The notes below the pieces were generated by a model. It ran no database searches. It was not told the origin of the DNA and saw nothing but the letters and a program-made list of their open reading frames with translations. The position numbers and the translations under genes are program-made. 23,643 bases of DNA, taken from UHGV virus genome UHGV-1377030; one strand, 5' to 3'. Positions 2,767-14,518 of the stretch are shown piece after piece (position 1 is the stretch's first letter; every line of letters starts with the position of its first letter). This DNA comes from a virus.

Positions 2767-3042
2767 ATGTCGATGTACACAACCGCCCAGCTGCTGGCGG
2801 CAAATGAGCAGAAATTTAAGTTTGATCCGCTGTTTCTGCGTCTCTTTTTCCGTGAGAGCTATCCCTTCACCACGGAGAAAGTCTATCTCTCACAAATTCC
2901 GGGACTGGTAAACATGGCGCTGTACGTTTCGCCGATTGTTTCCGGTGAGGTTATCCGTTCCCGTGGCGGATCCACCTCTGAATTTACGCCGGGATATGTC
3001 AAACCCAAGCACTTAGCATGGCTTTCTGAGGCTTTCGTGTAG
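2767..3042 (+). pseudogene. E: Major capsid protein E, 5' fragment truncated by the island insertion
   Basis: MSMYTTAQLLAANEQKFKFDPLFLRLFFRESYPFTTEKVYLSQ...TPGYVKPKH matches the lambda gpE N-terminus up to about nt 3012; the frame then reads 10 unrelated codons (LAWLSEAFV) and stops at 3042. The rest of E resumes at 13730. Confidence 0.85.
3002..3011. repeat. Left copy of 10-bp direct repeat (putative attL core)
   Basis: aacccaagca; identical copy at 13728..13737. Lambda-homologous E sequence ends here. Confidence 0.55.
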
Positions 3043-3139
3043 TTGCTGGTTTTTACACTTAATCTTTTGATAATAAAGAATAAATTTATCTGGCGCTTTC
3101 ACTGAATTTTCCTCGTTATCTGTGTGTTGCAATCATCTC

Positions 3140-3160
3140 TGTATTGCAGCTTGTATTGCT
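3140..3160. repeat. Tandem direct repeat tgtattgcagc / tgtattgct (putative integrase arm-type sites, left end)
   Basis: tgtattgcagc (3140..3150) and tgtattgct (3152..3160); a near-identical pair occurs at 13632..13652 in the same orientation. Confidence 0.45.
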
Positions 3161-3174
3161 TTTTGGGGCTAAAA

Positions 3175-4410
3175 ATGGCTGGCGAGAACAAACTGAGCGA
3201 CAAAGCGCTTAAAGGATATCTGGGGAAACCCAGAGAAAAGCAGATCACCATTGCTGATGGAAAGGGGCTTTCTATTCGTGTGAGTACTAAAGGGGCTGTG
3301 AGCTTTGTTTTCTTCTACAGGTTAGCAGGTGGCCGGGCTGCTCCGGTCTGGCTAACGTTGGGTAAATATCCTGATATGTCACTCAAACAGGCAAGGGAAA
3401 AGCGCGACGAGTGCCGTGGTTGGTTGGCTGACAAACGTGATCCGCGTATCCAGATTAAGATTCAGGCTGAAGAACGCTTAAAGCCGGTCACAGTGGAGGA
3501 TGCACTAAATTACTGGTATGAAAATTACTGTAAGGTGCGTCGTAAAACTCATGCTGTAACGCTTGGCAGATTTCGAAAGCATATCTTTCCCTATATCGGT
3601 CATTTGCCCGTAAATGACACTCACCTATATGAATGGCTGGACTGTTTTGACCGAATTAAACGTAATGCACCAGTTATGGCGGCGTATGTTTTTTCTGACA
3701 CTAAATTAGCTCTTCGTTTTTGTCGGGTACGCCAGTACGCGACGTGTGATGCTTTAAAGGATTTGCGCATGAGTGATGTGGGGCAGATTGCAGGTAAGCG
3801 GGATCGGGTTCTGGATGAAGCCGAACTCGGCCAGCTCTGGAAGGCAATTTTTGTCGAGCCTGATTTAAAACTAATGTCTGAATACACGCGAAAAATGTTT
3901 GTGCTTTGTACAGTATTTGGATGTCGAATGAGTGAAGCCCGATTATCAGAATGGAGCGAATGGGATCTCGAAAGTTGGGTTTGGACTGTACCAAAAGATC
4001 ACTCAAAAACTGGTGTTGAAATCGTCAGACCAGTACCTGAAATTCTACGACAGTGGGTAACGGATGTTCACGAAGAGACAAAACATACTGGTTATGTGCT
4101 GGGAAGTCTGCGAATTAGAGAAAGCGTAAGCAAGATTGGGGGGAAAATCGGTAAACGTTTGGGCCATGAAAAACAATGGTCACTACACGACCTTAGAAGA
4201 ACGCTATCTACTCATCTAAGTGATCTCGGTGTTGAATTTTATGTAGTAGAACAACTGTTAGGCCATGCGCTACCTGGCGTGGCAGGTGTTTACAACCGGA
4301 GTAAGTTTATGGCTAAAAAACTGGATGCTCTGGAACTCTGGACTACATATCTCAATAGCATCGCAGGTGCTGATTCAAAAGTGACGATCCTCAAACAAAA
4401 GGTTGGTTAA
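3175..4410 (+). CDS. int: Tyrosine recombinase / integrase, P4-type (N-terminal arm-binding domain plus catalytic domain)
   Basis: ATG at 3175 (MAGENKLSDKALKGYLG...) in the 3124..4410 ORF. N-terminus resembles the P4-like integrase arm-binding domain (DGKGLSIRVSTKGAVSFVFFYRLAG...LGKYPDMSLKQAREKRDE); the C-terminus carries HDLRRT, LLGHA and a VYNRS tyrosine region typical of tyrosine recombinases. Start at 3124 is an alternative. Confidence 0.85.
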   Translation: MAGENKLSDKALKGYLGKPREKQITIADGKGLSIRVSTKGAVSFVFFYRLAGGRAAPVWLTLGKYPDMSLKQAREKRDECRGWLADKRDPRIQIKIQAEERLKPVTVEDALNYWYENYCKVRRKTHAVTLGRFRKHIFPYIGHLPVNDTHLYEWLDCFDRIKRNAPVMAAYVFSDTKLALRFCRVRQYATCDALKDLRMSDVGQIAGKRDRVLDEAELGQLWKAIFVEPDLKLMSEYTRKMFVLCTVFGCRMSEARLSEWSEWDLESWVWTVPKDHSKTGVEIVRPVPEILRQWVTDVHEETKHTGYVLGSLRIRESVSKIGGKIGKRLGHEKQWSLHDLRRTLSTHLSDLGVEFYVVEQLLGHALPGVAGVYNRSKFMAKKLDALELWTTYLNSIAGADSKVTILKQKVG

Positions 4411-4411
4411 C

Positions 4412-4639
4412 ATGAAAAAAATGGCAATTGTTGATAAAAAGGGTCTGGAGTACATTCCTAACATTGACCGAATGATCCGTGAGAAAGAATGTCGGGAGCT
4501 AACCACTCTTGCGAACAGCACACGCTGGAAGCTGGAGAAGGAAGGAAAATTTCCTAAGCGGATCAAGATTGGTTCCACTGCTGTTGCATATCGTCTTTCA
4601 GAAGTGCAGGCATGGATTCGAGGTGAGTGGGTAGTTTAA
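4412..4639 (+). CDS. alpA: AlpA-like phage transcriptional regulator / excisionase-like HTH protein
   Basis: MKKMAIVDKKGLEYIPNIDRMIREKECRELTTLANSTRWKLEKEGKFPKRIKIGSTAVAYRLSEVQAWIRG; short MerR/AlpA-type HTH protein immediately after int with tight spacing (int stop 4408..4410, ATG 4412). Confidence 0.75.
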   Translation: MKKMAIVDKKGLEYIPNIDRMIREKECRELTTLANSTRWKLEKEGKFPKRIKIGSTAVAYRLSEVQAWIRGEWVV

Positions 4640-4664
4640 ATTATCTCAGAATAAAATATTATGA

Positions 4665-4700
4665 ATTACTGATTTGAGAATTTGTACTCAAATCAGTAAT
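4665..4700. terminator. Perfect 14-bp inverted repeat hairpin between convergent genes (bidirectional terminator candidate)
   Basis: attactgatttgag (4665..4678) and ctcaaatcagtaat (4687..4700) with an 8-nt loop, in AT-rich context between the alpA stop and the stop of the minus-strand membrane protein gene. Confidence 0.5.
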
Positions 4701-4708
4701 AACATTCT

Positions 4709-5245
4709 TTATAAGAGATTAAATCCAAATAAAGAGTAATCATATACCGGGGTGCATTGCATTCCACTGAATATGCTGATGTTTTTTTCTGTTTCTATCC
4801 TTTTTTCAATAAGTTGTTGTATATTTTTACAGTACAATTTGTGTGTGATGTTATTATCGTAAGCCTGATATAGCAACGTCAATGTTGACGCTAGGAAACA
4901 TACAGATAAAATTAAAATAATATATGCAGTTTTTTTATTTTTTGTCCATGATCTATTTGTTTGTGAAATATAAAGAATTCTGAGGTGGATAATGGTGAGA
5001 GACAATAGCAGGCCACTCAATAAAATAAGTATTGGGTTTGCGTATTTTATTAATGGTTGAGAGCAAAAAACTATTATAGCTCCTGTGACTGCGTATGAGA
5101 AAAAGGAGTAATTAAACTTCTTACTCCTTCTCTCAAGTATTTTAATTTCATCTTGTGTGGGGGTTTTAGATGCCTCTAATATAAGTTTATTGAATGTTTC
5201 TGTTATCTTGTTTTTTGTGTTTGTGGCTATTTTTTTTAGATTCAT
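4709..5245 (-). CDS. Hypothetical membrane protein (about 3 predicted TM helices), AT-rich cargo gene
   Basis: 178-aa ORF with hydrophobic stretches (FFSYAVTGAIIVFCSQPLI, ILILLSGLLLSLTIIHLRILYI, AYIILILSVCFLASTLTLLY), a GGGAG-like SD upstream, and strongly AT-rich codon usage unlike its neighbours. No family recognised. Confidence 0.5.
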   Translation of the reverse strand: MNLKKIATNTKNKITETFNKLILEASKTPTQDEIKILERRSKKFNYSFFSYAVTGAIIVFCSQPLIKYANPILILLSGLLLSLTIIHLRILYISQTNRSWTKNKKTAYIILILSVCFLASTLTLLYQAYDNNITHKLYCKNIQQLIEKRIETEKNISIFSGMQCTPVYDYSLFGFNLL

Positions 5246-5559
5246 AGCATTCTAACTCCCTTAACTTATTTATTACTTTCTCTTTATGATAAGAGAGGGG
5301 AATGACTTGGTAAAGTGATTTGTCATTAATAATGATAATCCTTGCGATAAATATTTCTGCAAGTTATTTATCTGTTTGTTGCTATCTTGTTAAGCGTTGG
5401 GTGTGGTTTATATTTGGAGCGACTTTATTTAATCGTGATTTTATGGATTTATATTTATATCCTGTAAGATAAGCGCATGTTAGTTTAGGAGTAGTGTCAG
5501 ATAAAATTATTCGGAGTAGAACTACCTTTTCTGTTTATTGCCAGTATTTACATAGCAAT

Positions 5560-5586
5560 GCGCCGTAGTTACTCACATCACGGCGC
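5560..5586. terminator. Stem-loop downstream of the minus-strand regulator gene
   Basis: gcgccgt (5560..5566) pairs with acggcgc (5580..5586); lies just 3' of the stop of the 5596..5898 gene on its strand. Confidence 0.3.
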
Positions 5587-5595
5587 TGATACTAA

Positions 5596-5898
5596 TTATT
5601 CAGATTCTTTGGCTTTACGCCGCTGGAGTTCTTCACGAGCGACGGCTACGAGTTGCCCGATTTCCTCCGCTGCCTTGATGCCGATTTGTTCGACCTTAGC
5701 TAAGGCATCCAGTGAAGACACGAGGGGATTTTCTCCGCTTCCTTCTGCCTGGCGGCGGGCGATCTCACCGCGCATGGCGGTTACTATGAATCCGGCGTTG
5801 CTTTCGCCGTCCAGTTTTACGGATTCCATGCCCTCCATAACATCGTGGGGAACCCTGATCGTTGTCATTTGCGATTTTGCATTTTTGTATACAGACAT
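5596..5898 (-). CDS. Putative small transcriptional regulator (repressor-like; possible ribbon-helix-helix N-terminus)
   Basis: 100-aa ORF divergent from the replication operon. N-terminal MTTIRVPHDVMEGMES resembles the beta-strand of RHH (Arc/CopG-like) DNA-binding proteins. The start could instead be the internal Met at 5868. Confidence 0.45.
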   Translation of the reverse strand: MSVYKNAKSQMTTIRVPHDVMEGMESVKLDGESNAGFIVTAMRGEIARRQAEGSGENPLVSSLDALAKVEQIGIKAAEEIGQLVAVAREELQRRKAKESE

Positions 5899-5914
5899 AG
5901 TTAATCACCAATTT

Positions 5915-6025
5915 GTTATGTGTATATCACTATACACAAAAGTGAGATATAAAAACACTTGCAATGTATATCACCACAATATAATGTATATCTCACATTA
6001 TGGTCGCTATGTATCTCACAATGAT
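5915..6025. promoter_or_regulatory. Divergent promoter/operator region with four direct copies of TGTATAT(C)TCAC-like motif plus an inverted copy
   Basis: tgtatatcac (5921..5930), tgtatatcacc (5965..5975), tgtatatctcac (5985..5996), tgtatctcaca (6009..6020) and inverted gtgagatat (5942..5950), all within the 208-bp gap between divergent genes. Confidence 0.5.
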
Positions 6026-6106
6026 CGATTCATAAAAACGACGAAACCCGGCAGTGCGCGAACACTAACCGGGCTTCTAACCAAACCGTTAAACGAGGTA
6101 ACTATT

Positions 6107-6472
6107 ATGGCTGGAACACAGCATACCCAAACTCACCCTAAATTTATATACATCTTTCTGGCGCTACATCGCGATCGCATAGCAGATGGAGCAACTACGG
6201 TACATGTAGCCGCTGACACGCTGGTTGATGCCCGCAAGATGGTTAAGGAGATGGGCTATACTGCGGCTTTCTGGAAAGGGCGGGAAGAAAACACGCTGTT
6301 TATTCAGAAATGTGAAAACAATTTCCTCTGGCGTTTTATCGCCCTGAGTACGACACAACCGCGCGTGATTACCATCGAGGCCACCAGCGAACAGGAAGCC
6401 CGCCAGCAATCCCCAACTGGCTGCGTGATGATATTCGCCGCCCGTATTCGTCAGGAGGTGTGCCATGAATGA
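6107..6472 (+). CDS. Hypothetical protein (first gene of island early/replication operon)
   Basis: ATG at 6107 preceded by a GAGGT SD; the longer 5558..6472 ORF would run antisense through the regulator gene, so it is trimmed. No family recognised. Confidence 0.5.
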   Translation: MAGTQHTQTHPKFIYIFLALHRDRIADGATTVHVAADTLVDARKMVKEMGYTAAFWKGREENTLFIQKCENNFLWRFIALSTTQPRVITIEATSEQEARQQSPTGCVMIFAARIRQEVCHE

Positions 6473-6689
6473 TCTTTATTTTAAAGTGCTGACACATGCT
6501 GAAAACGCGCTCGTTTGTGGCAAAAATATGCGAGAAATCTTATCAACCTGGCTTGATGGGACAACAAATGCGGAACACGATGAACGGGATGCTAATTTAG
6601 CTGGAGCGTTAATTACGTTACTTGATCCTGTCATCAAAGAGCTGGATGAAGCTATAAAAATACACGATCAGAGCTATACCGAAGAATAA
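6465..6689 (+). CDS. Hypothetical protein
   Basis: 74-aa ORF; its ATG overlaps the upstream stop (ATGA coupling) and is preceded by an AGGAGG SD. Confidence 0.5.
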   Translation: MNDLYFKVLTHAENALVCGKNMREILSTWLDGTTNAEHDERDANLAGALITLLDPVIKELDEAIKIHDQSYTEE

Positions 6690-6691
6690 AA

Positions 6692-6979
6692 ATGAAAAAT
6701 AAATTTTCTGGCTTTATTGCTAGCGGTCAAGCTCATTCAAAAATCAGCCTTGGGGATATTTTCAAAGATAGCTATGGCTATCGGGTAAAGATTATTTCGG
6801 TTGATGATCGCCGTGTCCCTTATTTGCGTGATGGTTATGATTTTGAATGTGTTATGCCGCGTCAGCAGTTCGAAAGAGATTTCATTCTGGTAAAAAATTG
6901 CAAGACAGATAATCAGAGGCGTGCCGCAGGCTATATCCGCAAAATTCGGGCAATGTTAGTTGCCGGAGGTAATAAATGA
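6692..6979 (+). CDS. Hypothetical protein
   Basis: 95-aa ORF starting 3 nt after the previous stop; operon context. Confidence 0.45.
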   Translation: MKNKFSGFIASGQAHSKISLGDIFKDSYGYRVKIISVDDRRVPYLRDGYDFECVMPRQQFERDFILVKNCKTDNQRRAAGYIRKIRAMLVAGGNK

Positions 6980-7158
6980 AACGTGCTCCGAACTTAAAAT
7001 ACCAACCGCGCGACAAAATGACAGAAGTCATCATTTTTGCTGGCAGTGATGCCTAGAGCCATGCAAAAGAATGGAATGAATGGGCGGGTAAGCATATTGC
7101 AGCAGATGATACACCACCAGTAATTCTGGGTACGGAACAACTGGAAAACCTGGATGAT

Positions 7159-8796
7159 ATGCAAATTATCGATGAAGGCCGTCATTATGTGCGTGTTTAT
7201 CGTGCCGGAAAGATTGCAGAGAAAAATCTGACGAAGGTTGCGACATTACTTGCTATTGCAGGCGTAAAGGAAGCACGTTGTTACCGTAGCTTTGTTGATC
7301 GAGAGCCTGAAGACTGGACTCCGCGCCTTGTCGGCCTAAAAGCTGAAGCGGAGCATGGGGAAAGTCTGGTGATTGAACTGCCAGTGAAGAAGGCTGAGCG
7401 CAAAAATGACGAGCGTGCTTCATCTTTGGCGTTGAATCAGATGGGGGCCAGCCAGCGCGGTGAAGTTCTCCTTGCACATTACGGCGGCGAACTGGCAATC
7501 AATGCCGACTCTGACACCGTTCATCATTACAACGGCGTTGTATGGGAGCCGGTTCAGGATAAAGAGTTACAGCGTGCTATGGCGCAGATTTTCATTGATG
7601 CGGAGATCAGCTATTCGCAGAACGCTATTAAATCGGCGGTAGATACCATGAAGTTAAGTTTGCCTGTAATGGGGAATACAGCCCGTAACCTGATTGGATT
7701 CAGTAACGGGGTATTTGATACCAGAACTGGTAATTTTCGGGAGCATAACAAAAACGACTGGTTGTTAATTGCCAGTGAATTACCTTTCAGCCCACCAGCA
7801 GAGGGGGAAACGCTGGCAACACATGCGCCGAATTTCTGGAAGTGGTTGCGCCGTTCGGTGGCTGAGAATGACCGCAAGGCAGATCGCGTACTGGCGGCAT
7901 TATTCATGGTGCTGGCGAACCGGTACGACTGGCAGTTATTCATTGAGGTAACAGGGCCGGGGGGAAGTGGTAAAAGTGTGATGGCGGAGATTTGCACCAT
8001 GCTGGCGGGTAAGGCTAATACAGTATCAGCAAGCATGAAGGCGCTGGAAGATGCAAGGGAACGTGCGTTAGTGGTTGGCTTTTCGCTGATTATCATGCCG
8101 GATATGACCCGCTACGCTGGTGATGGGGCAGGGATTAAGGCCATTACAGGCGGTGACAAGGTGGCAATTGACCCGAAACACAAAGCCCCCTATTCAACGC
8201 GTATTCCGGCAGTAGTGCTGGCGGTTAACAATAACGCCATGTCATTCAGTGACCGCAGCGGGGGGATCTCACGTCGTCGGGTGATATTCAATTTTTCGGA
8301 AGTTGTACCGGAGAACGAACGCGATTCGATGCTGGCGGAAAAAATAGAAGGTGAGCTGGCGGTAGTGATTCGTCATCTGCTTACAAGGTTTGCTGATCAG
8401 GACGAAGCCAGACGCCTGTTATATGAGCAGCAGAAATCTGAAGAAGCACTGGCGATAAAGCGAGAGGGGGATTCGCTGGTGGACTTCTGCGGTTATCTCA
8501 TGGCATCGGTAATGTGTGATGGCCTGTTAGTGGGTAATGCTGAAATTGTGCCATTCAGCCCACGCAGGTATCTCTATCATGCCTATCTGGCTTATATGAG
8601 GGCACATGGGTTTGGTAAACCTGTAACACTGACGCGCTTCGGTAAAGATATGCCGGGGGCAATGGCGGAATATGGCAGGGAGTATATGAAACGGAAAACG
8701 AAGCACGGTTTGCGTTCAAACGTGACCCTGACGGAGGAATCAGAAGACTGGATGCCATCATGTGTATCGGTCACTAATGACGATAGCAAAAATTAA
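7159..8796 (+). CDS. Phage/plasmid primase-helicase, P4 alpha-like (D5 N-terminal-like region plus SF3 P-loop NTPase)
   Basis: Walker A GPGGSGKS in TGPGGSGKSVMAEICTMLAG, a downstream hydrophobic-acidic Walker B-like stretch (LVVGFSLIIMPDM), and overall resemblance to satellite/PICI primase-replicase proteins. Gene is followed directly by an iteron array. Confidence 0.8.
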   Translation: MQIIDEGRHYVRVYRAGKIAEKNLTKVATLLAIAGVKEARCYRSFVDREPEDWTPRLVGLKAEAEHGESLVIELPVKKAERKNDERASSLALNQMGASQRGEVLLAHYGGELAINADSDTVHHYNGVVWEPVQDKELQRAMAQIFIDAEISYSQNAIKSAVDTMKLSLPVMGNTARNLIGFSNGVFDTRTGNFREHNKNDWLLIASELPFSPPAEGETLATHAPNFWKWLRRSVAENDRKADRVLAALFMVLANRYDWQLFIEVTGPGGSGKSVMAEICTMLAGKANTVSASMKALEDARERALVVGFSLIIMPDMTRYAGDGAGIKAITGGDKVAIDPKHKAPYSTRIPAVVLAVNNNAMSFSDRSGGISRRRVIFNFSEVVPENERDSMLAEKIEGELAVVIRHLLTRFADQDEARRLLYEQQKSEEALAIKREGDSLVDFCGYLMASVMCDGLLVGNAEIVPFSPRRYLYHAYLAYMRAHGFGKPVTLTRFGKDMPGAMAEYGREYMKRKTKHGLRSNVTLTEESEDWMPSCVSVTNDDSKN

Positions 8797-8804
8797 ACTT
8801 ATGG

Positions 8805-9040
8805 AATAACTGTTCACCACTGTTCACCCTGTCATAAATATCTTTTATATCAGTATATTATAGGGTGAACAGTTATTTATGAACTGTTCACCAAACTATT
8901 CACTGTTCACCTTTTTGATTGTTTATTGAGCTTCAAGGGTGAACAGTGGTGAACAGTTGGTGAATAGTTTTTGTGAAACTGTTCACCCATTAACATTATG
9001 AATTAAAAGAGAAAATATCAAAAGGTGAACAGGTGAAGGG
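8805..9040. repeat. Iteron array, putative island replication origin
   Basis: About 10 copies of CTGTTCACC or its complement GGTGAACAG in both orientations: 8810..8818, 8820..8828, 8864..8872, 8884..8892, 8903..8911, 8938..8946, 8948..8956, 8959..8967 (degenerate), 8979..8987, 9024..9032, in AT-rich non-coding DNA just 3' of the helicase gene. Confidence 0.65.
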
Positions 9041-9083
9041 TTAAAACGCAAAAATTTTAATTTACTGCTGTGAGATAAAGCCT

Positions 9084-9329
9084 ATGACAGCGAAGCACAC
9101 AAAAAAATCACAATCGCACGCCCTTGATTTGACGGAACACTGGTTAAGGGTGTCGATAAAAATCATCGACCGCAACGCCGGGGAAGGATACGCGAAAGCA
9201 CATCCCGAACTGATTAGCGCATTCATGACAACGGCGGCTGCAAACTTTGCCACTCTGACCGAACGGGAGATTGCTGAAGCGGAGGAAGTGACAACAATCA
9301 ATATTAAGTCCGGAGAGCAGGCAGCATGA
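9084..9329 (+). CDS. Hypothetical protein
   Basis: 81-aa ORF; its stop overlaps the start of the next gene (ATGA). Weak SD. Confidence 0.4.
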   Translation: MTAKHTKKSQSHALDLTEHWLRVSIKIIDRNAGEGYAKAHPELISAFMTTAAANFATLTEREIAEAEEVTTINIKSGEQAA

Positions 9330-9775
9330 CGGCGCAAATATCAGTTTACGGGCGGTTGGTGGACGACCCGCAGACAAAACAGACCAGCAAGGGCACCCCC
9401 ATGACGCTGGCGCGTATGGCGGTATCACTGCCCTGCAGTCAGTCGGATGACGGTCAGGCGACGATGTGGTTATCTGTCCTGGCGTTTGGCAGACAAGCCG
9501 ACGCGCTGGCAAAGCATCACAAAGGCGAACTCCTGAGCGTGGCGGGTAATATGCAGGTGAGCCAGTGGACTGGACAGAACGGTGAAACGCGGCAGGGCTG
9601 GCAGGTTATCGCAGACAGCGTAATCAGTGCGCGAACGGTGCGACCGGGCGGCAAAAAAGGTCAACAGGGTCAGGCTACTGACGCACTGAACAGAGCAAAA
9701 CAACAGGCAGATCAGCAAGGAAGCCATCCACCAGTGGGAGATAATGAGCAATGGGGAGATGATATTCCGTTTTAA
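9326..9775 (+). CDS. Single-stranded DNA-binding protein-like (divergent SSB with acidic C-terminal tail)
   Basis: 149 aa ending in ...EQWGDDIPF, the characteristic SSB C-terminal tail (DDDIPF); a Gly/Gln-rich linker precedes it. Confidence 0.6.
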   Translation: MTAQISVYGRLVDDPQTKQTSKGTPMTLARMAVSLPCSQSDDGQATMWLSVLAFGRQADALAKHHKGELLSVAGNMQVSQWTGQNGETRQGWQVIADSVISARTVRPGGKKGQQGQATDALNRAKQQADQQGSHPPVGDNEQWGDDIPF

Positions 9776-9783
9776 ATATTGCC

Positions 9784-9808
9784 AATAAAAAAGGCCGGAA
9801 AAAAATAA
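9784..9808. other. Palindromic hairpin after the SSB-like gene
   Basis: gccggaaaa-aaataaa-ttttccggc perfect palindrome; terminator or operator, function unclear. Confidence 0.3.
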
Positions 9809-9992
9809 ATTTTCCGGCATGCTACATAAATCCCGACCAAAGGGAGTGAAGATATTAACACTAATTATCCGCGCTGGAGTTGTTATCCCAAAACTTTATA
9901 CAACATTGCACTCGGTTGCATGTATTCGCATGACAAATATCGGTGATAGCATATATCCACAATTATTTTTAATGAATGCAAAGAGGATGCGT

Positions 9993-11033
9993 ATGGTTGA
10001 TTTATATTCGCCTACCCAGCTTGTACAGGTGGTTAATGCTGTAGATGTACAAAAACAACTAAATGCGTTGTTTACCAGTTTGTTTTTTACTCGCTCGGTA
10101 ATGTTTGAATCGCGCGATATTATTCTTGATACAATCGACGATCCAAATATCCCAATTGCAGCGTTTTGTTCTCCTATGGTAGGTAGTAAAGTTTCACGTG
10201 ACGAAGGGTACGAATCAAAAACAATTCGTCCAGGCTATATGAAGCCGAAAAGCAGCATTGATCCAAATAAGTTAGCTGTGCGCCCTGCTGGTGTATCACC
10301 TGAGCAATACAATGCTTTTGGAGCGCGTAATATTAAAGTTAAACAGGCGATTGTAAATCAGGCTAAAGCTATTCGTGCACGTATTGAATGGTTTGCCGTT
10401 CAGGCAATCACAACGGGGAAAAATATCATTGAGGGCGATGGTATTGAACGTTATGAGCTGGACTGGAATATAAAACCACAAAATATCATCACTCAGTCTG
10501 GCGGTACTGAGTGGTCAGGTAAGGATAAAGAAACTTTTGATCCAAATGATGATATTGAGAGCTACGCAGAATTTAGTGAGGGCGTCACTAATATCATCAT
10601 TATGGGCGGTAATGTATGGAAGAAATACCGTTCATTCAGAGCGATAAAAGAGGCTCTGGATACCCGTCGTGGTTCTAATTCCGAACTGGAAACGGCCCTT
10701 AAAGACCTTGGTGATTCGGTGAGTTTTAAAGGGTATATGGGCGATGTTGCGATTGTTGTATACAGCGGGCGTTATACCGACGAGGACGGAACTGAAAAAC
10801 ATTTCCTTGATCCTGATTTGATGGTGCTTGGCAATACGGCTCTTCAGGGGATTGTCGCCTATGGCGGTATTCAGGATCCGGAGCTAATCCGAATGGGGCT
10901 GACTAAAGCCGAACTTGCACCGAAAAACTATATTGTGCCTGGTGATCCGGCTATTGAATATGTGCAGACACATTCAGCACCACAGCCAATACCGGCCCGC
11001 ATCAATCGTTTTGTTACCGTTCGCATTGGCTAA
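9993..11033 (+). CDS. Island-encoded major capsid protein homologue (lambda gpE-like, full length)
   Basis: ATG at 9993 with an AGAGGA SD 5 nt upstream. MVDLYSPTQLVQ... aligns with the gpE N-terminus, and the C-terminal half is clearly homologous (ITQSGGTEWS, LDTRRGSNSELETA, GDVAIVVYSG, MVLGNT, GDPA), visible even at nucleotide level. Confidence 0.85.
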   Translation: MVDLYSPTQLVQVVNAVDVQKQLNALFTSLFFTRSVMFESRDIILDTIDDPNIPIAAFCSPMVGSKVSRDEGYESKTIRPGYMKPKSSIDPNKLAVRPAGVSPEQYNAFGARNIKVKQAIVNQAKAIRARIEWFAVQAITTGKNIIEGDGIERYELDWNIKPQNIITQSGGTEWSGKDKETFDPNDDIESYAEFSEGVTNIIIMGGNVWKKYRSFRAIKEALDTRRGSNSELETALKDLGDSVSFKGYMGDVAIVVYSGRYTDEDGTEKHFLDPDLMVLGNTALQGIVAYGGIQDPELIRMGLTKAELAPKNYIVPGDPAIEYVQTHSAPQPIPARINRFVTVRIG

Positions 11034-11042
11034 GGGGGAGCA

Positions 11043-11384
11043 ATGGCTACTCATTACACTGAACTCATGGCTGGCACTGAAGCACTGGTGACTACGCTGG
11101 GGATATTTTCAGCTAATAAAGGGGTAATTCCTGCATTTACGCCACTGATGCAGGAAGATGCAACAGGTGCACTGGTGGTATGGGATGGTTCGAGCGTAGG
11201 TAAAGCGGTTTATGTTTCCGCTGTACAAATCGACACCGCGAAAAAAACACAGGCTCAGGTCTATAAGACAGGTGTCTTAAATGTTGATGCTCTGAACTGG
11301 CCTGAGTCTGTAAAAGAACTGTCAGTAAAGATTGCAGCGTTTGTTGGCTCAGGTATTTCTGTTCAGCCGCTGGCTCGTGTGTAA
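11043..11384 (+). CDS. Island-encoded head decoration protein homologue (lambda gpD-like)
   Basis: 113 aa with strong SD (AAGGGGGAG). TPLMQEDATGALVVWDGSSVGKAVYVSAVQ...FVGSGISV parallels gp[30 protein letters not shown]...FAGTAISIV; similar length. Confidence 0.7.
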   Translation: MATHYTELMAGTEALVTTLGIFSANKGVIPAFTPLMQEDATGALVVWDGSSVGKAVYVSAVQIDTAKKTQAQVYKTGVLNVDALNWPESVKELSVKIAAFVGSGISVQPLARV

Positions 11385-11395
11385 AGGGGGATACA

Positions 11396-11779
11396 ATGCA
11401 GAATGATTACAATGACCTTAAGCCACTTGCCGAAATGATGTACCCGAATCCAGCTGTAGAGGAATTAAAAGCTATCGCTGACAAAATGTGTTTAAGCGAG
11501 CGCCTTGTTGATATGAATCAGGTGATGGAAATTACAACCCTGAGTCGGCGTACACTGCTAAACCTTGAGGCTAGTGGAGAGTTCCCGGAGCGTGTGCAGG
11601 TTACGGAAGGGCGTAAGGCCTGGTATTTAAGTGAAGTGATCGACTGGATAAATAATATTCCTCGCGCTTCTGAATATTGCCGCGTACCTGTCCCAAAAAA
11701 GCCAGATGCGGCGCTATGCCTCAAGATTGAGCGTGTACGCCGCAATGCACGGGATGGTCGCTATAAGCTGATTGGTTGA
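11396..11779 (+). CDS. Small HTH DNA-binding protein (AlpA/MerR-like winged helix), candidate cos-binding or packaging-redirecting protein
   Basis: 127 aa with strong SD. Central segment MEITTLSRRTLLNLEASGEFPERVQVTEGRKAWYLSEVIDWINN has AlpA-like HTH architecture; gene sits directly upstream of the island cos site. Confidence 0.55.
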   Translation: MQNDYNDLKPLAEMMYPNPAVEELKAIADKMCLSERLVDMNQVMEITTLSRRTLLNLEASGEFPERVQVTEGRKAWYLSEVIDWINNIPRASEYCRVPVPKKPDAALCLKIERVRRNARDGRYKLIG

Positions 11780-11832
11780 TGAAATTAGGGCCCGCTCTGG
11801 CTGGCGGGTCCTTTCCGGCGATCTGACAGGCT

Positions 11833-12000
11833 ACGGGGCGTCAGGCGCGCAGTTTTTTGCTATTTGTGAAAATTTTCCTGTTTAAGGCGTTTCCGTTCTT
11901 CTTCGCCGTAACTTAATGTTTTTATTAAAAACACCCCCTAAAAAGAAAGGAAACGACAGGTGCTAAAAACAGGCTTTTTGGCCTCTGTCGTTTCCTTTCT
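11833..12000 (+). other. Lambda-type cos site carried by the island (cosN-like plus cosB R3, I1 region, R2, R1)
   Basis: Sequence from ctacggggcg... through gcgtttccgttcttcttcg (R3-like, 11888..11905), agaaaggaaacgacag (R2-like, 11944..11959) and ctgtcgtttcctttct (R1-like, 11985..12000) closely parallels the left end of lambda DNA as I recall it. The R-site region is near-identical; the cosN segment differs at several positions. Confidence 0.75.
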
Positions 12001-12345
12001 CTGGTTTTGTTGCCATCCGTCGCGGTCTATCACCAGAAAAAATCTTATCCCTGAGTTGAATCAGGCCCTATTCAGAAGCGGCCAATAACGCGCCGCTAGC
12101 TTCACTTCATAGTTATGGCCTACTTCTGCGCCATTGCAATTGCTTTATGCGCCTTGATGGTGGAATATAGAGCAAGCAGTTTGCGAATAACAAAGTTTCA
12201 TATGTTTTTTGCTGTGTGGCTAGACAACTTTACAGCAGAGTTTTGTGTCAGTTCTTTATGTGTGCAAGCAAGCTTGAGGGGGAATTACTTCTGGCTGCAT
12301 CTTTGCTTAAGAACAGCAATAATTTAATCATAAGGAAATGTATAT

Positions 12346-12368
12346 AAGCCTGATTAAATTTCAGGCTT
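12346..12368 (-). terminator. Hairpin immediately 3' of the TIR-domain gene
   Basis: aagcctga (12346..12353) pairs with tcaggctt (12361..12368) around a 7-nt loop, 10 nt beyond the gene stop, in AT-rich context. Confidence 0.4.
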
Positions 12369-12377
12369 ATTGAAATG

Positions 12378-13520
12378 TTAACTCCTTATTAGAGAGTAAA
12401 TTCCATCCTCTTTAAGGAAGTCTATTACTTCAAAGAATGAGATAAAGAATTCCCAAGAACCAAAAGCATATGCATGAATTTCGTAAGGTGCAAAATGGAA
12501 TCTAAATCCATCACTATTTATTGTGAACGAGTCTAAGTTACTATCCATGATACCCGTTGCAAACGTACTAATGTCGTCCTCACTTGGTTTTTCACCAGTT
12601 TTCTCCCAAAATTCACGAGCTGATTCAGAGATTATTTTTTGTTTTATCTTATTAATCGCTTCTTGCTCTTTCCCTTCGGTAAATACATCCCATAAACTAA
12701 ATTTGTATGCGTAGTCATCCTTGGTTATTACGAAATTACTAGTTTCAAAATGACTGTTAGGGTGTGCTGCTCCCGCACCATACCAATGTACGGAATGAAG
12801 GATGCTCATAACATTTTCGTTACAGTATGAGATGTTATAACTTTCATTATAGGAACTAGTGTAAGTGTGTTTATATTCTTCATCCCAATATGGTGTTCCT
12901 GGCCATAGTGATGTGCGTTCAGAAAAAATATGTAAAGCCGCTTTTCCTGAAAAGTAATCACTAATGAGTTTTGCTGATTTCGGTAATGTATGGCTTTCAA
13001 TTCTTGGATATGCTATTTCAATTTCATGCCCTGGGATCTTGTTATATTCTTCCTTGAAAACCTCGCTGCTAAAGTTAAATGGCCCATAAGTGATACCTTG
13101 AGATATTTCAAGTTTTTGTTGCGATGCTGCTAATCTTAAAGATCTAGATAAAATGTCCCAACCATCATTTCTCTTAAAATCAATGAATTGGAGCTTGCTT
13201 GATATGTAGGCGGGTACTTCGCAATCATCAATAAGTAATGGTATCACGAACACATCATCTGGTTTGTAATACTTTAGTTTATCAATGGCGTCATTTATTT
13301 CGCGGCGAATATAACCATTTTTCTGAGTGCTCACTTTGCTAAGGATAAGGATTATCAAGTTTGAATTAGCGAAGTTTTTTTGGATTTCATAATCCCAGTT
13401 TACGCCAGCGGGTATATCTTTTACATCCATCCAAGGGGAATATCCTCCACTTTTTAGCCTTTCATAGATTTCTTCAGTTATCGTTTCATCTTCTTTTGCA
13501 TGAGCAAGAAAAATTTTCAT
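12378..13520 (-). CDS. TIR-domain protein with uncharacterised ~240-aa C-terminal domain (candidate anti-phage defence cargo)
   Basis: 380-aa ORF with an AAGGAA SD 6 nt upstream. N-terminus MKIFLAHAKEDETITEEIYERLKSGGYSPWMDVKDIPAGVNW...LIILILSKVSTQKNGYIRREINDAI fits the bacterial TIR pattern (K-I/V-F-L/I-S/A-H/Y start, W at box 2, S-x-x-S...E catalytic-type segment). Strongly AT-rich relative to island and phage genes. Confidence 0.75.
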   Translation of the reverse strand: MKIFLAHAKEDETITEEIYERLKSGGYSPWMDVKDIPAGVNWDYEIQKNFANSNLIILILSKVSTQKNGYIRREINDAIDKLKYYKPDDVFVIPLLIDDCEVPAYISSKLQFIDFKRNDGWDILSRSLRLAASQQKLEISQGITYGPFNFSSEVFKEEYNKIPGHEIEIAYPRIESHTLPKSAKLISDYFSGKAALHIFSERTSLWPGTPYWDEEYKHTYTSSYNESYNISYCNENVMSILHSVHWYGAGAAHPNSHFETSNFVITKDDYAYKFSLWDVFTEGKEQEAINKIKQKIISESAREFWEKTGEKPSEDDISTFATGIMDSNLDSFTINSDGFRFHFAPYEIHAYAFGSWEFFISFFEVIDFLKEDGIYSLIRS

Positions 13521-13631
13521 TGAATATTCCTTTATAATTTAACTAATTAAGTGAAGGAGGCTTTACTTGGCTGTGTTAGAAAAAATTCGGTTTGTTTTTT
13601 GTACGATGCCAAGAAGGCTTTTCCCTAACCA

Positions 13632-13652
13632 TGTATTGCAGCATGTATTGCT
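13632..13652. repeat. Tandem direct repeat tgtattgcagc / tgtattgct (putative integrase arm-type sites, right end)
   Basis: tgtattgcagc (13632..13642) and tgtattgct (13644..13652), matching the pair at 3140..3160. Confidence 0.45.
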
Positions 13653-13727
13653 ACGTAATTCTGCACCCTCTCATTTATAAAATAAATCTCTGTTAAATCA
13701 AGTATCTTTTTTCTATTTGACTCATGT

Positions 13728-13737
13728 AACCCAAGCA
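13728..13737. repeat. Right copy of 10-bp direct repeat (putative attR core)
   Basis: aacccaagca; lambda E-homologous sequence resumes exactly here. Confidence 0.55.
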
Positions 13738-14518
13738 TGAGGTGAATCCGCAGATGACCCTGCGTCGCCTGCCGGATGAAGATCCGCAGAATCTGGCGGA
13801 CCCGGCTTACCGCCGCCGTCGCATCATCATGCAGAACATGCGTGACGAAGAGCTGGCCATTGCTCAGGTCGAAGAGATGCAGGCCGTTTCTGCCGTGCTT
13901 AAGGGCAAATACACCATGACCGGTGAAGCCTTCGATCCGGTTGAGGTGGATATGGGCCGCAGTGCGGCGAATAACATCACGCAGTCCGGCGGCACGGAGT
14001 GGAGCAAGCGTGACAAGTCCACGTATGACCCGACCGACGATATCGAAGCCTACGCGCTGAACGCCAGCGGTGTGGTGAATATCATCGTGTTTGATCCGAA
14101 AGGCTGGGCGCTGTTCCGTTCCTTCAAAGCCGTCAAGGAGAAGCTGGATACCCGTCGTGGCTCTAATTCCGAGCTGGAGACAGCGGTGAAAGACCTGGGT
14201 AAAGCGGTGTCCTATAAGGGGATGTATGGCGATGTTGCCATCGTCGTGTATTCCGGACAGTACGTGGAAAACGGCGTCAAAAAGAACTTCCTGCCGGACA
14301 ACACGATGGTGCTGGGGAACACTCAGGCACGCGGTCTGCGTACCTATGGCTGTATTCAGGATGCGGACGCACAGCGCGAAGGCATTAACGCCTCTGCCCG
14401 TTACCCGAAAAACTGGGTGACCACCGGCGATCCGGCGCGTGAGTTCACCATGATTCAGTCAGCACCGCTGATGCTGCTGGCTGACCCTGATGAGTTCGTG
14501 TCCGTACAACTGGCGTAA
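13730..14518 (+). pseudogene. E: Major capsid protein E, 3' fragment (continuation of the gene interrupted at about 3012)
   Basis: PKHEVNPQMTLRRLPDEDPQNLADPAYRRRR...DEFVSVQLA matches lambda gpE from about residue 80 to the C-terminus. An in-frame TAA at 13727..13729 precedes it, so the fragment lacks its N-terminal part. Confidence 0.85.

Follow-up and report, generated by a model that had tools for sequence, protein, structure and literature searches.

The virus genome UHGV-1377030, a stretch of 23,643 nt that we analyzed as a whole and call the window, carries a 236-bp array of short repeats (iterons) at positions 8805-9040, directly downstream of a gene for a helicase related to the alpha protein of phage P4. 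We conclude, with a probability of roughly 0.85, that this array is the replication origin of a 10.7-kb satellite of the helper-embedded 11capE type, which lies within the major capsid gene of a lambdoid prophage. Five observations carry this conclusion: the repeats themselves, their non-random occurrence, the homology of DNA and protein to P4 and to a validated origin of a phage-inducible chromosomal island (PICI), the conservation of place and layout in most relatives, and the co-variation of iteron sequence with the DNA-binding domain of the adjoining helicase.

The 9-mer CTGTTCACC or its complement is present in nine exact copies, all of them between 8810 and 9032, and in none elsewhere in the window. 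A tenth copy, CTATTCACC at 8959-8967 on the minus strand, has one mismatch. Two degenerate copies with two mismatches each, CTATTCACT at 8896-8904 (+) and GGTGAAGGG at 9032-9040 (-), stand where relatives have good iterons: GTATTCACC at the former position and, at the latter, a second terminal copy that is well preserved in P4 ori and in most relatives. Shortened to the core octamer TGTTCACC, the repeat occurs nine times in 8811-9031 and nowhere else in the island; two further exact octamers in the window both lie inside helper genes. By chance, 0.0007 exact copies of CTGTTCACC are expected in 236 bp of the local base composition and 0.19 across the window at the composition of the window. When one mismatch is allowed, the window contains 24 copies, compared to 4.8 +/- 2.0 in shuffled sequences, and none of 100 shuffles reached 24. 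On these statistics we rejected chance or low-complexity repeats as the source of the array.

Along the plus strand, the left half of the array begins with two exact forward copies, iteron 1 (8810-8818) and iteron 2 (8820-8828), 10 bp apart. These are followed by an AT-rich spacer of 35 bp (8829-8863), iteron 3 as an exact complement (8864-8872, -), iteron 4 (8884-8892, +), the first degenerate copy (+), and iteron 5 (8903-8911, +). The right half starts with three reverse copies: iteron 6 (8938-8946), iteron 7 (8948-8956), 10 bp further on, and the one-mismatch iteron 8, 11 bp beyond that. It then continues with iteron 9 (8979-8987, +), a second AT-rich spacer of 36 bp (8988-9023), iteron 10 (9024-9032, -), and the degenerate terminal copy (-); apart from iteron 8, all numbered iterons are exact. 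Same-sense neighbors are therefore 10-11 bp apart, or one helical turn, and each spacer is bracketed by iterons that point at each other. We calculated nearest-neighbor duplex stability over 30-step windows (mean of the whole stretch -43.0 kcal/mol, sd 4.2); the segment 8833-8863, inside the first spacer, is the least stable duplex of all (dG -28.5 kcal/mol), and 8989-9019, inside the second, is among the ten least stable (dG -30.7). Both spacers are candidate DNA-unwinding elements.

The surrounding DNA is non-coding. The array begins 14 bp past the helicase stop codon (8794-8796) and the next gene is at 9084; no open reading frame (ORF) of at least 50 aa overlaps the intervening region at 8797-9061 on either strand. 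GC content over 8750-9100 is 31-36%, compared to about 45-57% in the upstream helicase gene. The sequence-only reading of this DNA had described about ten copies of a 9-mer, in both orientations, in about 235 bp of AT-rich DNA beside the helicase gene, and the count of nine exact copies and one with a single mismatch agrees with it. The array region is 100% identical in three other Escherichia coli copies and is found at 90% identity or more in 594 of 5426 complete E. coli genomes (about 11%), in up to six places per genome; among the matches listed (n=30), none has an annotated feature beneath it. In the full-text literature, the bare octamer was matched only in lists of primers. Two further features flank the array: a 9-bp direct repeat, GCAAAAATT, brackets it at 8786-8794 and 9048-9056, and a block immediately to its right (9040-9063, TTAAAACGCAAAAATTTTAATTT) is conserved in relatives and may mark the edge of a module or serve as a host-factor site or promoter.

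The octamer is identical to one in P4. GenBank record X51522 labels TGTTCACC as the 'ori type 1 repeat' both in P4 ori (9086-9809) and in crr, the region required in cis that lies directly 3' of the alpha gene, and all 11 exact copies in P4 fall within annotated ori and crr. When the array region is compared by blastn with 50,697 phage records, P4 ori is hit (E 6e-6). For the binding of type 1 iterons by alpha we rely on the X51522 annotation, on the name and title of structure 1KA8, and on general knowledge. The likeness extends to the arrangement of the sites. Octamers in the right half, at 8938 (-), 8948 (-), 8959 (-), 8980 (+), and 9024 (-), are spaced 10/11/21/44 and follow P4 ori in order, orientation, and spacing (9310 (-), 9320 (-), 9331 (-), 9353 (+), 9396 (-), 9406 (-); 10/11/22/43/10). 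Those in the left half, at 8811 (+), 8821 (+), 8864 (-), 8885 (+), and 8904 (+), are spaced 10/43/21/19 and come close to one 120-bp unit of crr (4314 (+), 4323 (+), 4366 (-), 4384 (-), 4398 (+); 9/43/18/14), although the fourth iteron is inverted relative to crr.

The spacers lend modest support to the same pairing of left half with crr and right half with ori. The left spacer aligns to the spacer of the second crr unit with z=2.8 and to that of the first with z=1.6, which alone is not significant; the right spacer aligns to the 35-bp P4 ori spacer (9361-9395) with z=2.4, and the cross-pair alignments are absent (z=0.7 and -0.3). The block therefore resembles a crr-like unit and an ori-like unit united in about 230 bp. 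Like P4 crr, the array lies directly 3' of the initiator gene, and the protein is 51% identical to alpha across the helicase and origin-binding domains (BLASTP, alpha residues 323-771 only). In contrast, P4 has two clusters 4.5 kb apart, with crr made of two tandem 120-bp units, while the island has a single cluster and its relatives likewise have one block instead of a bipartite ori and crr several kb apart. Alpha also has a Zn-ribbon/Toprim primase domain (residues 1-322) that remains unaligned and that the island protein lacks. With an identical type 1 octamer, matching spacings, and an adjoining origin-binding domain of the P4 alpha type, the resemblance to P4 ori drawn in the sequence-only reading is borne out.

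The architecture also matches that of a validated PICI origin. A rep-ori segment of EcCICFT073 maintains a plasmid at the restrictive temperature; the rep mutant yields no colonies and deletion of ori yields significantly fewer (Fillol-Salom et al. 2018, PMC6092414). We located this element at 27.9-38.7 kb of locus L032, with its array at 33997-34284. There, as in the window, genes for a DUF4222 protein, Rep, a small ORF, a single-stranded DNA-binding protein (SSB), and capsid and decoration proteins follow in the same order, with a gap of about 290 bp after Rep; the array follows rep at once on the 3' side and has AT-rich DNA flanked by two sets of iterons, and the Rep proteins have identical domain composition, likewise without a primase domain. 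The left spacer of the window aligns to the EcCICFT073 spacer with z=2.9. The two differ in that the EcCICFT073 iterons read T(G/A/C)TCTACC rather than TGTTCACC, its Rep is 42% identical to that of the window and has another wing, and the element is integrated in the chromosome and not within a helper.

In the pathogenicity islands of Staphylococcus aureus (SaPIs), ori is immediately downstream of rep and consists of 6-12 iterons split around a central AT-rich region; the iterons are recognized by a winged-helix domain in the C-terminal domain of Rep, a self-loading 3'->5' helicase (PMC9371898). The island shares the position of ori downstream of rep, the opposite iteron orientation on either side of AT-rich DNA, the C-terminal winged helix, and a helicase of the superfamily 3 (SF3)/MCM type whose core is homologous to SaPI5 PriRep (7OLA). 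It differs in that SaPI iterons are 5-6 nt long and unrelated in sequence, the primase is separate or fused, SaPIs live in Gram-positive hosts, and the sequences have little identity overall. The array thus has the features of a PICI origin: a place 3' of the initiator, two opposed iteron sets flanking AT-rich DNA, an architecture like that of EcCICFT073, and a match between iteron and binding domain.

We compared the locus with 23 loci of 13 kb each from other Enterobacterales, one genome per species, whose helicases are 55-80% identical to that of the window. A cluster of repeated motifs directly follows the stop codon in 22 of the 23, and the same layout (+ +, AT-rich spacer, - + +, then - - +, AT-rich spacer, - -) is found in 21; L017 has the left half only, L012 has only the shorter core GGTGAA/TTCACC recurring, and L025 has no cluster directly after the stop. 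Exact iteron copies are nearly all confined to that block in each locus. Within the TGTTCACC group, where overall DNA identity is 64-72%, iteron columns are 84.5% conserved and spacer columns 57.2%, a gap that none of 264 shifted masks reached.

Two loci have further peculiarities. L025, from Erwinia rhapontici, has a reading frame of 812 codons (P4 alpha has 795 by the same count), and its TGTTCACC clusters are split between 3052-3137 and 9508-9603, which lie about 1.8 kb before and about 2.1 kb after the gene, a bipartite arrangement like that of P4 and unlike the compact PICI block. L002 (Escherichia phage vB_KppS-Ant, LR881103.1) is recorded as an 'induced prophage' of 16.5 kb that has terminase, capsid, and portal genes of its own, and it has the same TGTTCACC array at 11721-11949, 3' of a gene called 'DNA primase'; this suggests that the module of ori and binding domain is common to capsid-forming satellites too.

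Array and helicase are also linked by co-variation. Six iteron variants occur among the groups of relatives: TGTTCACC, TGTCTACC, TATCTACC, TCTCCACC, TGTCCGCC, and TGTCCACC. In an alignment that adds the window protein and P4 alpha to those of the 23 relatives (25 proteins), normalized mutual information with iteron type peaks at residues 510-525, at 0.52 compared to 0.08-0.22 elsewhere. Thr514 is present in 12 of 12 proteins of the TGTTCACC type and in none of the 13 others, and the motif K-(R/H)-TK-x-G-(I/L/M)-(R/Q)-(S/T) is restricted to that type. Identity in the helicase core is alike whether two proteins share an iteron type or differ in it (0.76 vs 0.74); identity in residues 509-525 is 0.68 for same-type pairs and 0.31 for different-type pairs. 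Even among pairs with core identity of at least 0.85, this segment is 0.90 identical within a type and 0.30 between types, and none of 5000 label permutations reached the observed association.

Individual cases make the same point. The L008 protein has a core 93% identical to that of the window and yet another iteron and another wing, whereas P4 alpha, with a core only 52% identical, has the same iteron and the same wing motif. The segment tracks iteron type independently of relatedness. It is encoded at 8683-8733 (…MKRKTKHGLRSN…) and would correspond to the wing of a winged helix. A single-sequence AlphaFold model of the C-terminal domain had a predicted local distance difference test score (pLDDT) of 37, was unusable, and was not used. 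Conserved in most relatives, co-varying with the binding domain, and matching the validated EcCICFT073 architecture, the array holds up as the probable island origin that the sequence-only reading had taken it to be.

The gene upstream of the array, which we call rep, spans 6976-8796 (+) and has 606 codons when intact. In the window it is interrupted by an amber codon, TAG in place of TGG (Trp27), at 7054-7056, and the Prokaryotic Genome Annotation Pipeline (PGAP) describes it as 'DNA primase family protein, internal stop'. Downstream of the amber, an ORF of 545 codons (7159-8796, +) remains, which would need re-initiation at Met62. Its Pfam domains are D5_N, DUF5906 (the SF3 helicase P-loop), and Pox_D5. 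Residues 437-533 (8467-8757), the Pox_D5 part, match the origin-binding domain of P4 alpha (PDB 1KA8) with E 1.6e-24 in a phmmer search of solved structures, and the helicase core matches SaPI5 PriRep with E 2.2e-10.

Zn-ribbon and Toprim primase domains have no Pfam match in the intact 606-aa Rep even at E<=1. The N-terminal 160 or so residues of intact Rep (6976-7450), like those of the EcCICFT073 'Pri-Rep', likewise give no Pfam match at E<=1 and are not a primase. A true Zn-ribbon and Toprim primase fused to the same helicase occurs in L011 (Enterobacter hormaechei), again with a compact 3' array. We also looked for a primase hidden in neighboring island ORFs and rejected this idea; Pfam, PHROGs, and NCBIfam return only an Icd-like C-terminus, DUF4222, and unknowns. 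Because the primase part of alpha has no counterpart in it and no primase domain is found, the protein is best described from its sequence as an initiator-helicase, and 'primase-helicase', the name given to it in the sequence-only reading, is a misnomer inherited from database names. That reading had also placed the gene at 7159-8796; a helicase ORF does lie there, but it is the remainder of the 606-codon gene cut by the TGG->TAG change.

The lesion is clear in translation (...IIFAGSDA*SHAKEW...), where eleven relatives have W or Y at the position of the stop. Of the 71 complete E. coli genomes with this gene segment, only three have exactly this amber allele: AR_0013, IAI39, and AF57. Copies that are 98% identical (L027-L030), including the one in the founder strain NRG857c, have the intact 606-codon gene.

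The island extends from about 3011 to 13738 within a lambda-E-like major capsid gene, and the flanks of the window are lambdoid head and tail genes. Of the split capsid gene, the N-terminal part lies at 2767-3042 and the C-terminal part at 13742-14518, with the island in the same orientation; the att core AACCCAAGCA stands at the left end (3001-3010), where the helper gene is interrupted, and again at the right end (13729-13738). Because the island splits the major capsid gene of its helper, helper capsid protein is blocked until the island excises. The gene set is that of a PICI, with an integrase, an AlpA-type regulator, Rep, SSB, and a capsid homologue of its own, mostly in one direction. 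The SSB gene (9326-9775, +; Pfam SSB 2.6e-16, TIGR00621) has the same position in EcCICFT073 and is part of the replication zone.

The island is of the helper-embedded PICI type 11capE published by Tommasini, Mageeney and Williams (2023, PMC10111431). The element described there is 11 kb long and lies in the E-like gene of the icd prophage of NRG857c; its att block of identity spans 10 bp, it carries a capsid gene of its own, and it has a cos-like segment in common with the helper. The NRG857c copy (hit H20) is 99.3% identical over 95% of the island. This founder, Eco567.11capE, has the same insertion point, att block, capsid gene, and cos-like segment; it differs from the window in its intact 606-aa Rep, where the window has the amber allele, and in its right-end cargo, which encodes HEPN/DUF262 proteins rather than a TIR-domain protein.

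Several findings weigh against the array as an active origin of this island. The element 3' of alpha in P4 is crr, which is required in cis and is not established as a start site in the available literature. No recognizable primase is present anywhere in the island by Pfam, PHROGs, or NCBIfam. Residues 509-525 are read as the wing because they come after the presumed recognition helix in a winged-helix alignment, a placement made from the alignment only. RefSeq reports an 'internal stop' in the gene at 6976-8796 and flags it as a pseudogene, and the nearest in-frame ATG after the amber, Met62, has no obvious ribosome-binding site. For the founder, with its intact gene, three repeats of induction gave an attP:attB ratio of about 1 twice and of 1.6-1.9 once, and particles were not recovered (PMC10111431). 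The post-excision replication measured for this island type is thus weak. The composite of helper and island replicates before the island excises, and passive copying by the helper, together with helper late-operon transcription into the island, is plausible, as argued in the same paper (PMC10111431). The sequence-only reading held that the array implies autonomous replication after excision; a P4-type iteron origin in an integrated island is strongly supported, but 'implies' is too strong given the ratios near 1 in the founder and passive copying by the helper.

These points lead to the most serious alternative, that the origin is silent in this copy, its initiator gene dead and the island copied only passively within the helper prophage genome before excision. 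We regard this as possible but doubtful, and it concerns the activity of the array and not its identity. The amber at codon 27 and the PGAP call of an internal-stop pseudogene speak for it, as do the low founder ratios despite an intact gene and the pre-excision replication of the composite (PMC10111431). However, the array is 100% identical to copies next to intact genes and the lesion is rare and recent (3/71), so the DNA element itself has not decayed. A 545-aa product from Met62 would retain the D5_N, helicase, and origin-binding domains, and another element could supply in trans an initiator with matching specificity, given that 594 of 5426 genomes carry the array, in up to six places each. 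Because the amber comes so early in the initiator gene, the origin in this copy may fire only with the truncated product or with a compatible initiator supplied in trans.

The other alternatives give the array a different function. It could be a crr-like accessory site acting in cis, as an enhancer or through looping or copy-control 'handcuffing', with replication starting elsewhere; the array does share the position of P4 crr directly 3' of the initiator gene, and its left half is laid out much like a crr unit, with a weak likeness in the spacer sequence. We consider this unlikely because iterons form only one cluster in the island, a second is likewise absent within +/-6 kb in relatives, the layout of P4 ori recurs in the right half, the equivalent EcCICFT073 block together with rep is sufficient for plasmid replication, and the least stable DNA of the window lies within the array. 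Initiators of iteron replicons often autoregulate. The array lies between two co-oriented transcription units, and the block AAACGCA(A/T)ATTTTTTAATTT to its right is common to relatives, so the helicase protein might use it as an operator, either regulating the downstream operon (small ORF, SSB, capsid) or terminating its own transcript. This is still less probable: a consensus scan of 8600-9400 detects neither a sigma-70-like promoter nor an intrinsic terminator, an arrangement of twelve sites as two inverted modules with AT-rich spacers is the architecture of an origin and not of an operator, and the homologous elements in P4 and EcCICFT073 are origins; an operator role could in any case coexist with origin function. 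A packaging site (cos or pac), or the remnant of a repeat-bearing mobile element, would also be repeat-rich, AT-rich intergenic DNA of the kind that a satellite in need of packaging might carry. We give this almost no weight and rejected the packaging site, because a segment like the helper cos lies elsewhere (11805-12009), comparison of the array with the helper cos region shows no significant similarity, a search for the lambda cosN pattern gave nothing, and the repeats co-vary with the DNA-binding domain of the helicase and not with terminases.

If the array is the origin of the island, replication might begin as follows; we infer the binding, melting, and helicase loading, and the source of primers, from the sequence and from homologous systems. 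The C-terminal domains of the initiator would bind the twelve or so TGTTCACC sites. Since same-sense iterons one helical turn apart present one face of the DNA, neighboring initiators could assemble cooperatively. The two modules, each with iterons facing one another across an AT-rich spacer of about 35 bp (8829-8863 and 8988-9023), would provide the sites of duplex opening, where the hexameric 3'->5' SF3 helicase would load itself as is described for SaPI Rep and P4 alpha. Priming would presumably come from the host or the helper because Rep has no primase domain, and the island SSB could then coat the unwound strands.

Other features of the island lie outside this replication zone. A TIR-domain and DUF3298 protein (12378-13520, -), which probably serves in anti-phage defense, occupies a variable cargo slot at the right end; the same slot holds a small terminase and a DUF2971 protein in L028, HEPN and DUF262 proteins in L030 (NRG857c), and hypothetical proteins in L029. 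The lambda-E-like capsid gene (9819-11033) and D-like decoration gene (11043-11384) of the island are paralogous to helper D (2372-2710) and the split E, and EcCICFT073 carries the same pair, whose deletion was reported to have no effect on transfer. The cos-like segment at 11805-12009 is 88% identical over 205 bp to the helper region just upstream of the small terminase gene (L026 5603-5807). An 18-nt repeat, AAAAATAAATTTTC(T/C)GGC, lies at 6695-6712 and 9801-9818, at or just before the starts of the DUF4222 gene and the long-form capsid ORF. In the 304-aa ORF at 5558-6472, only the last 50 or so residues match a family (Icd-like cell-division inhibitor, or 'transcriptional repressor' in PHROGs); the gene called by RefSeq covers only its 3' third (about 6107-6472), and a YlcI/YnfO gene is annotated there on the other strand (5596-5898). 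A search of the window against Rfam at gathering thresholds gave no match, and thus no immunity RNA of the C4/isrK type was detected.

The P4 ori and crr, the PICI and SaPI origins, and this type of island were already known. New here are the map of the array at the level of sites, the exact identity of iteron and spacing with P4, the appearance of a fused ori and crr, the six specificity pairs of iteron and wing, the lack of a primase domain, and the private amber allele. Taken together, they turn a gap of 265 bp, found in some 11% of complete E. coli genomes and unannotated among the matches listed, into a defined origin whose sites are mapped. They also correct the widespread 'DNA primase' label on the initiator, and they join two satellite families usually kept apart, a PICI origin with the iteron and spacing of P4 ori and crr. 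The six natural iteron/wing pairs offer a system for studying how winged helices read their sites and for predicting cross-activation or exclusion between satellites. The amber codon suggests that, in this lineage, replication of the island may require the helper or some other element.

We also tentatively propose, as a possibility to which we give well under even odds, that the compact PICI origin and the two-part P4 origin are the same module, with the crr-like and ori-like units fused here; that origin and wing are exchanged as a cassette, with at least six specificities; and that a P4-like alpha or a Rep with the Thr514 wing could fire the array in trans, alpha because the island shares its specificity with P4. 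If this is true, then the split ori and crr of P4 would have been derived by rearranging a PICI-type origin, or the other way round, and Rep-defective copies such as this one could persist as 'satellites of satellites', or co-resident satellites could compete for one initiator.

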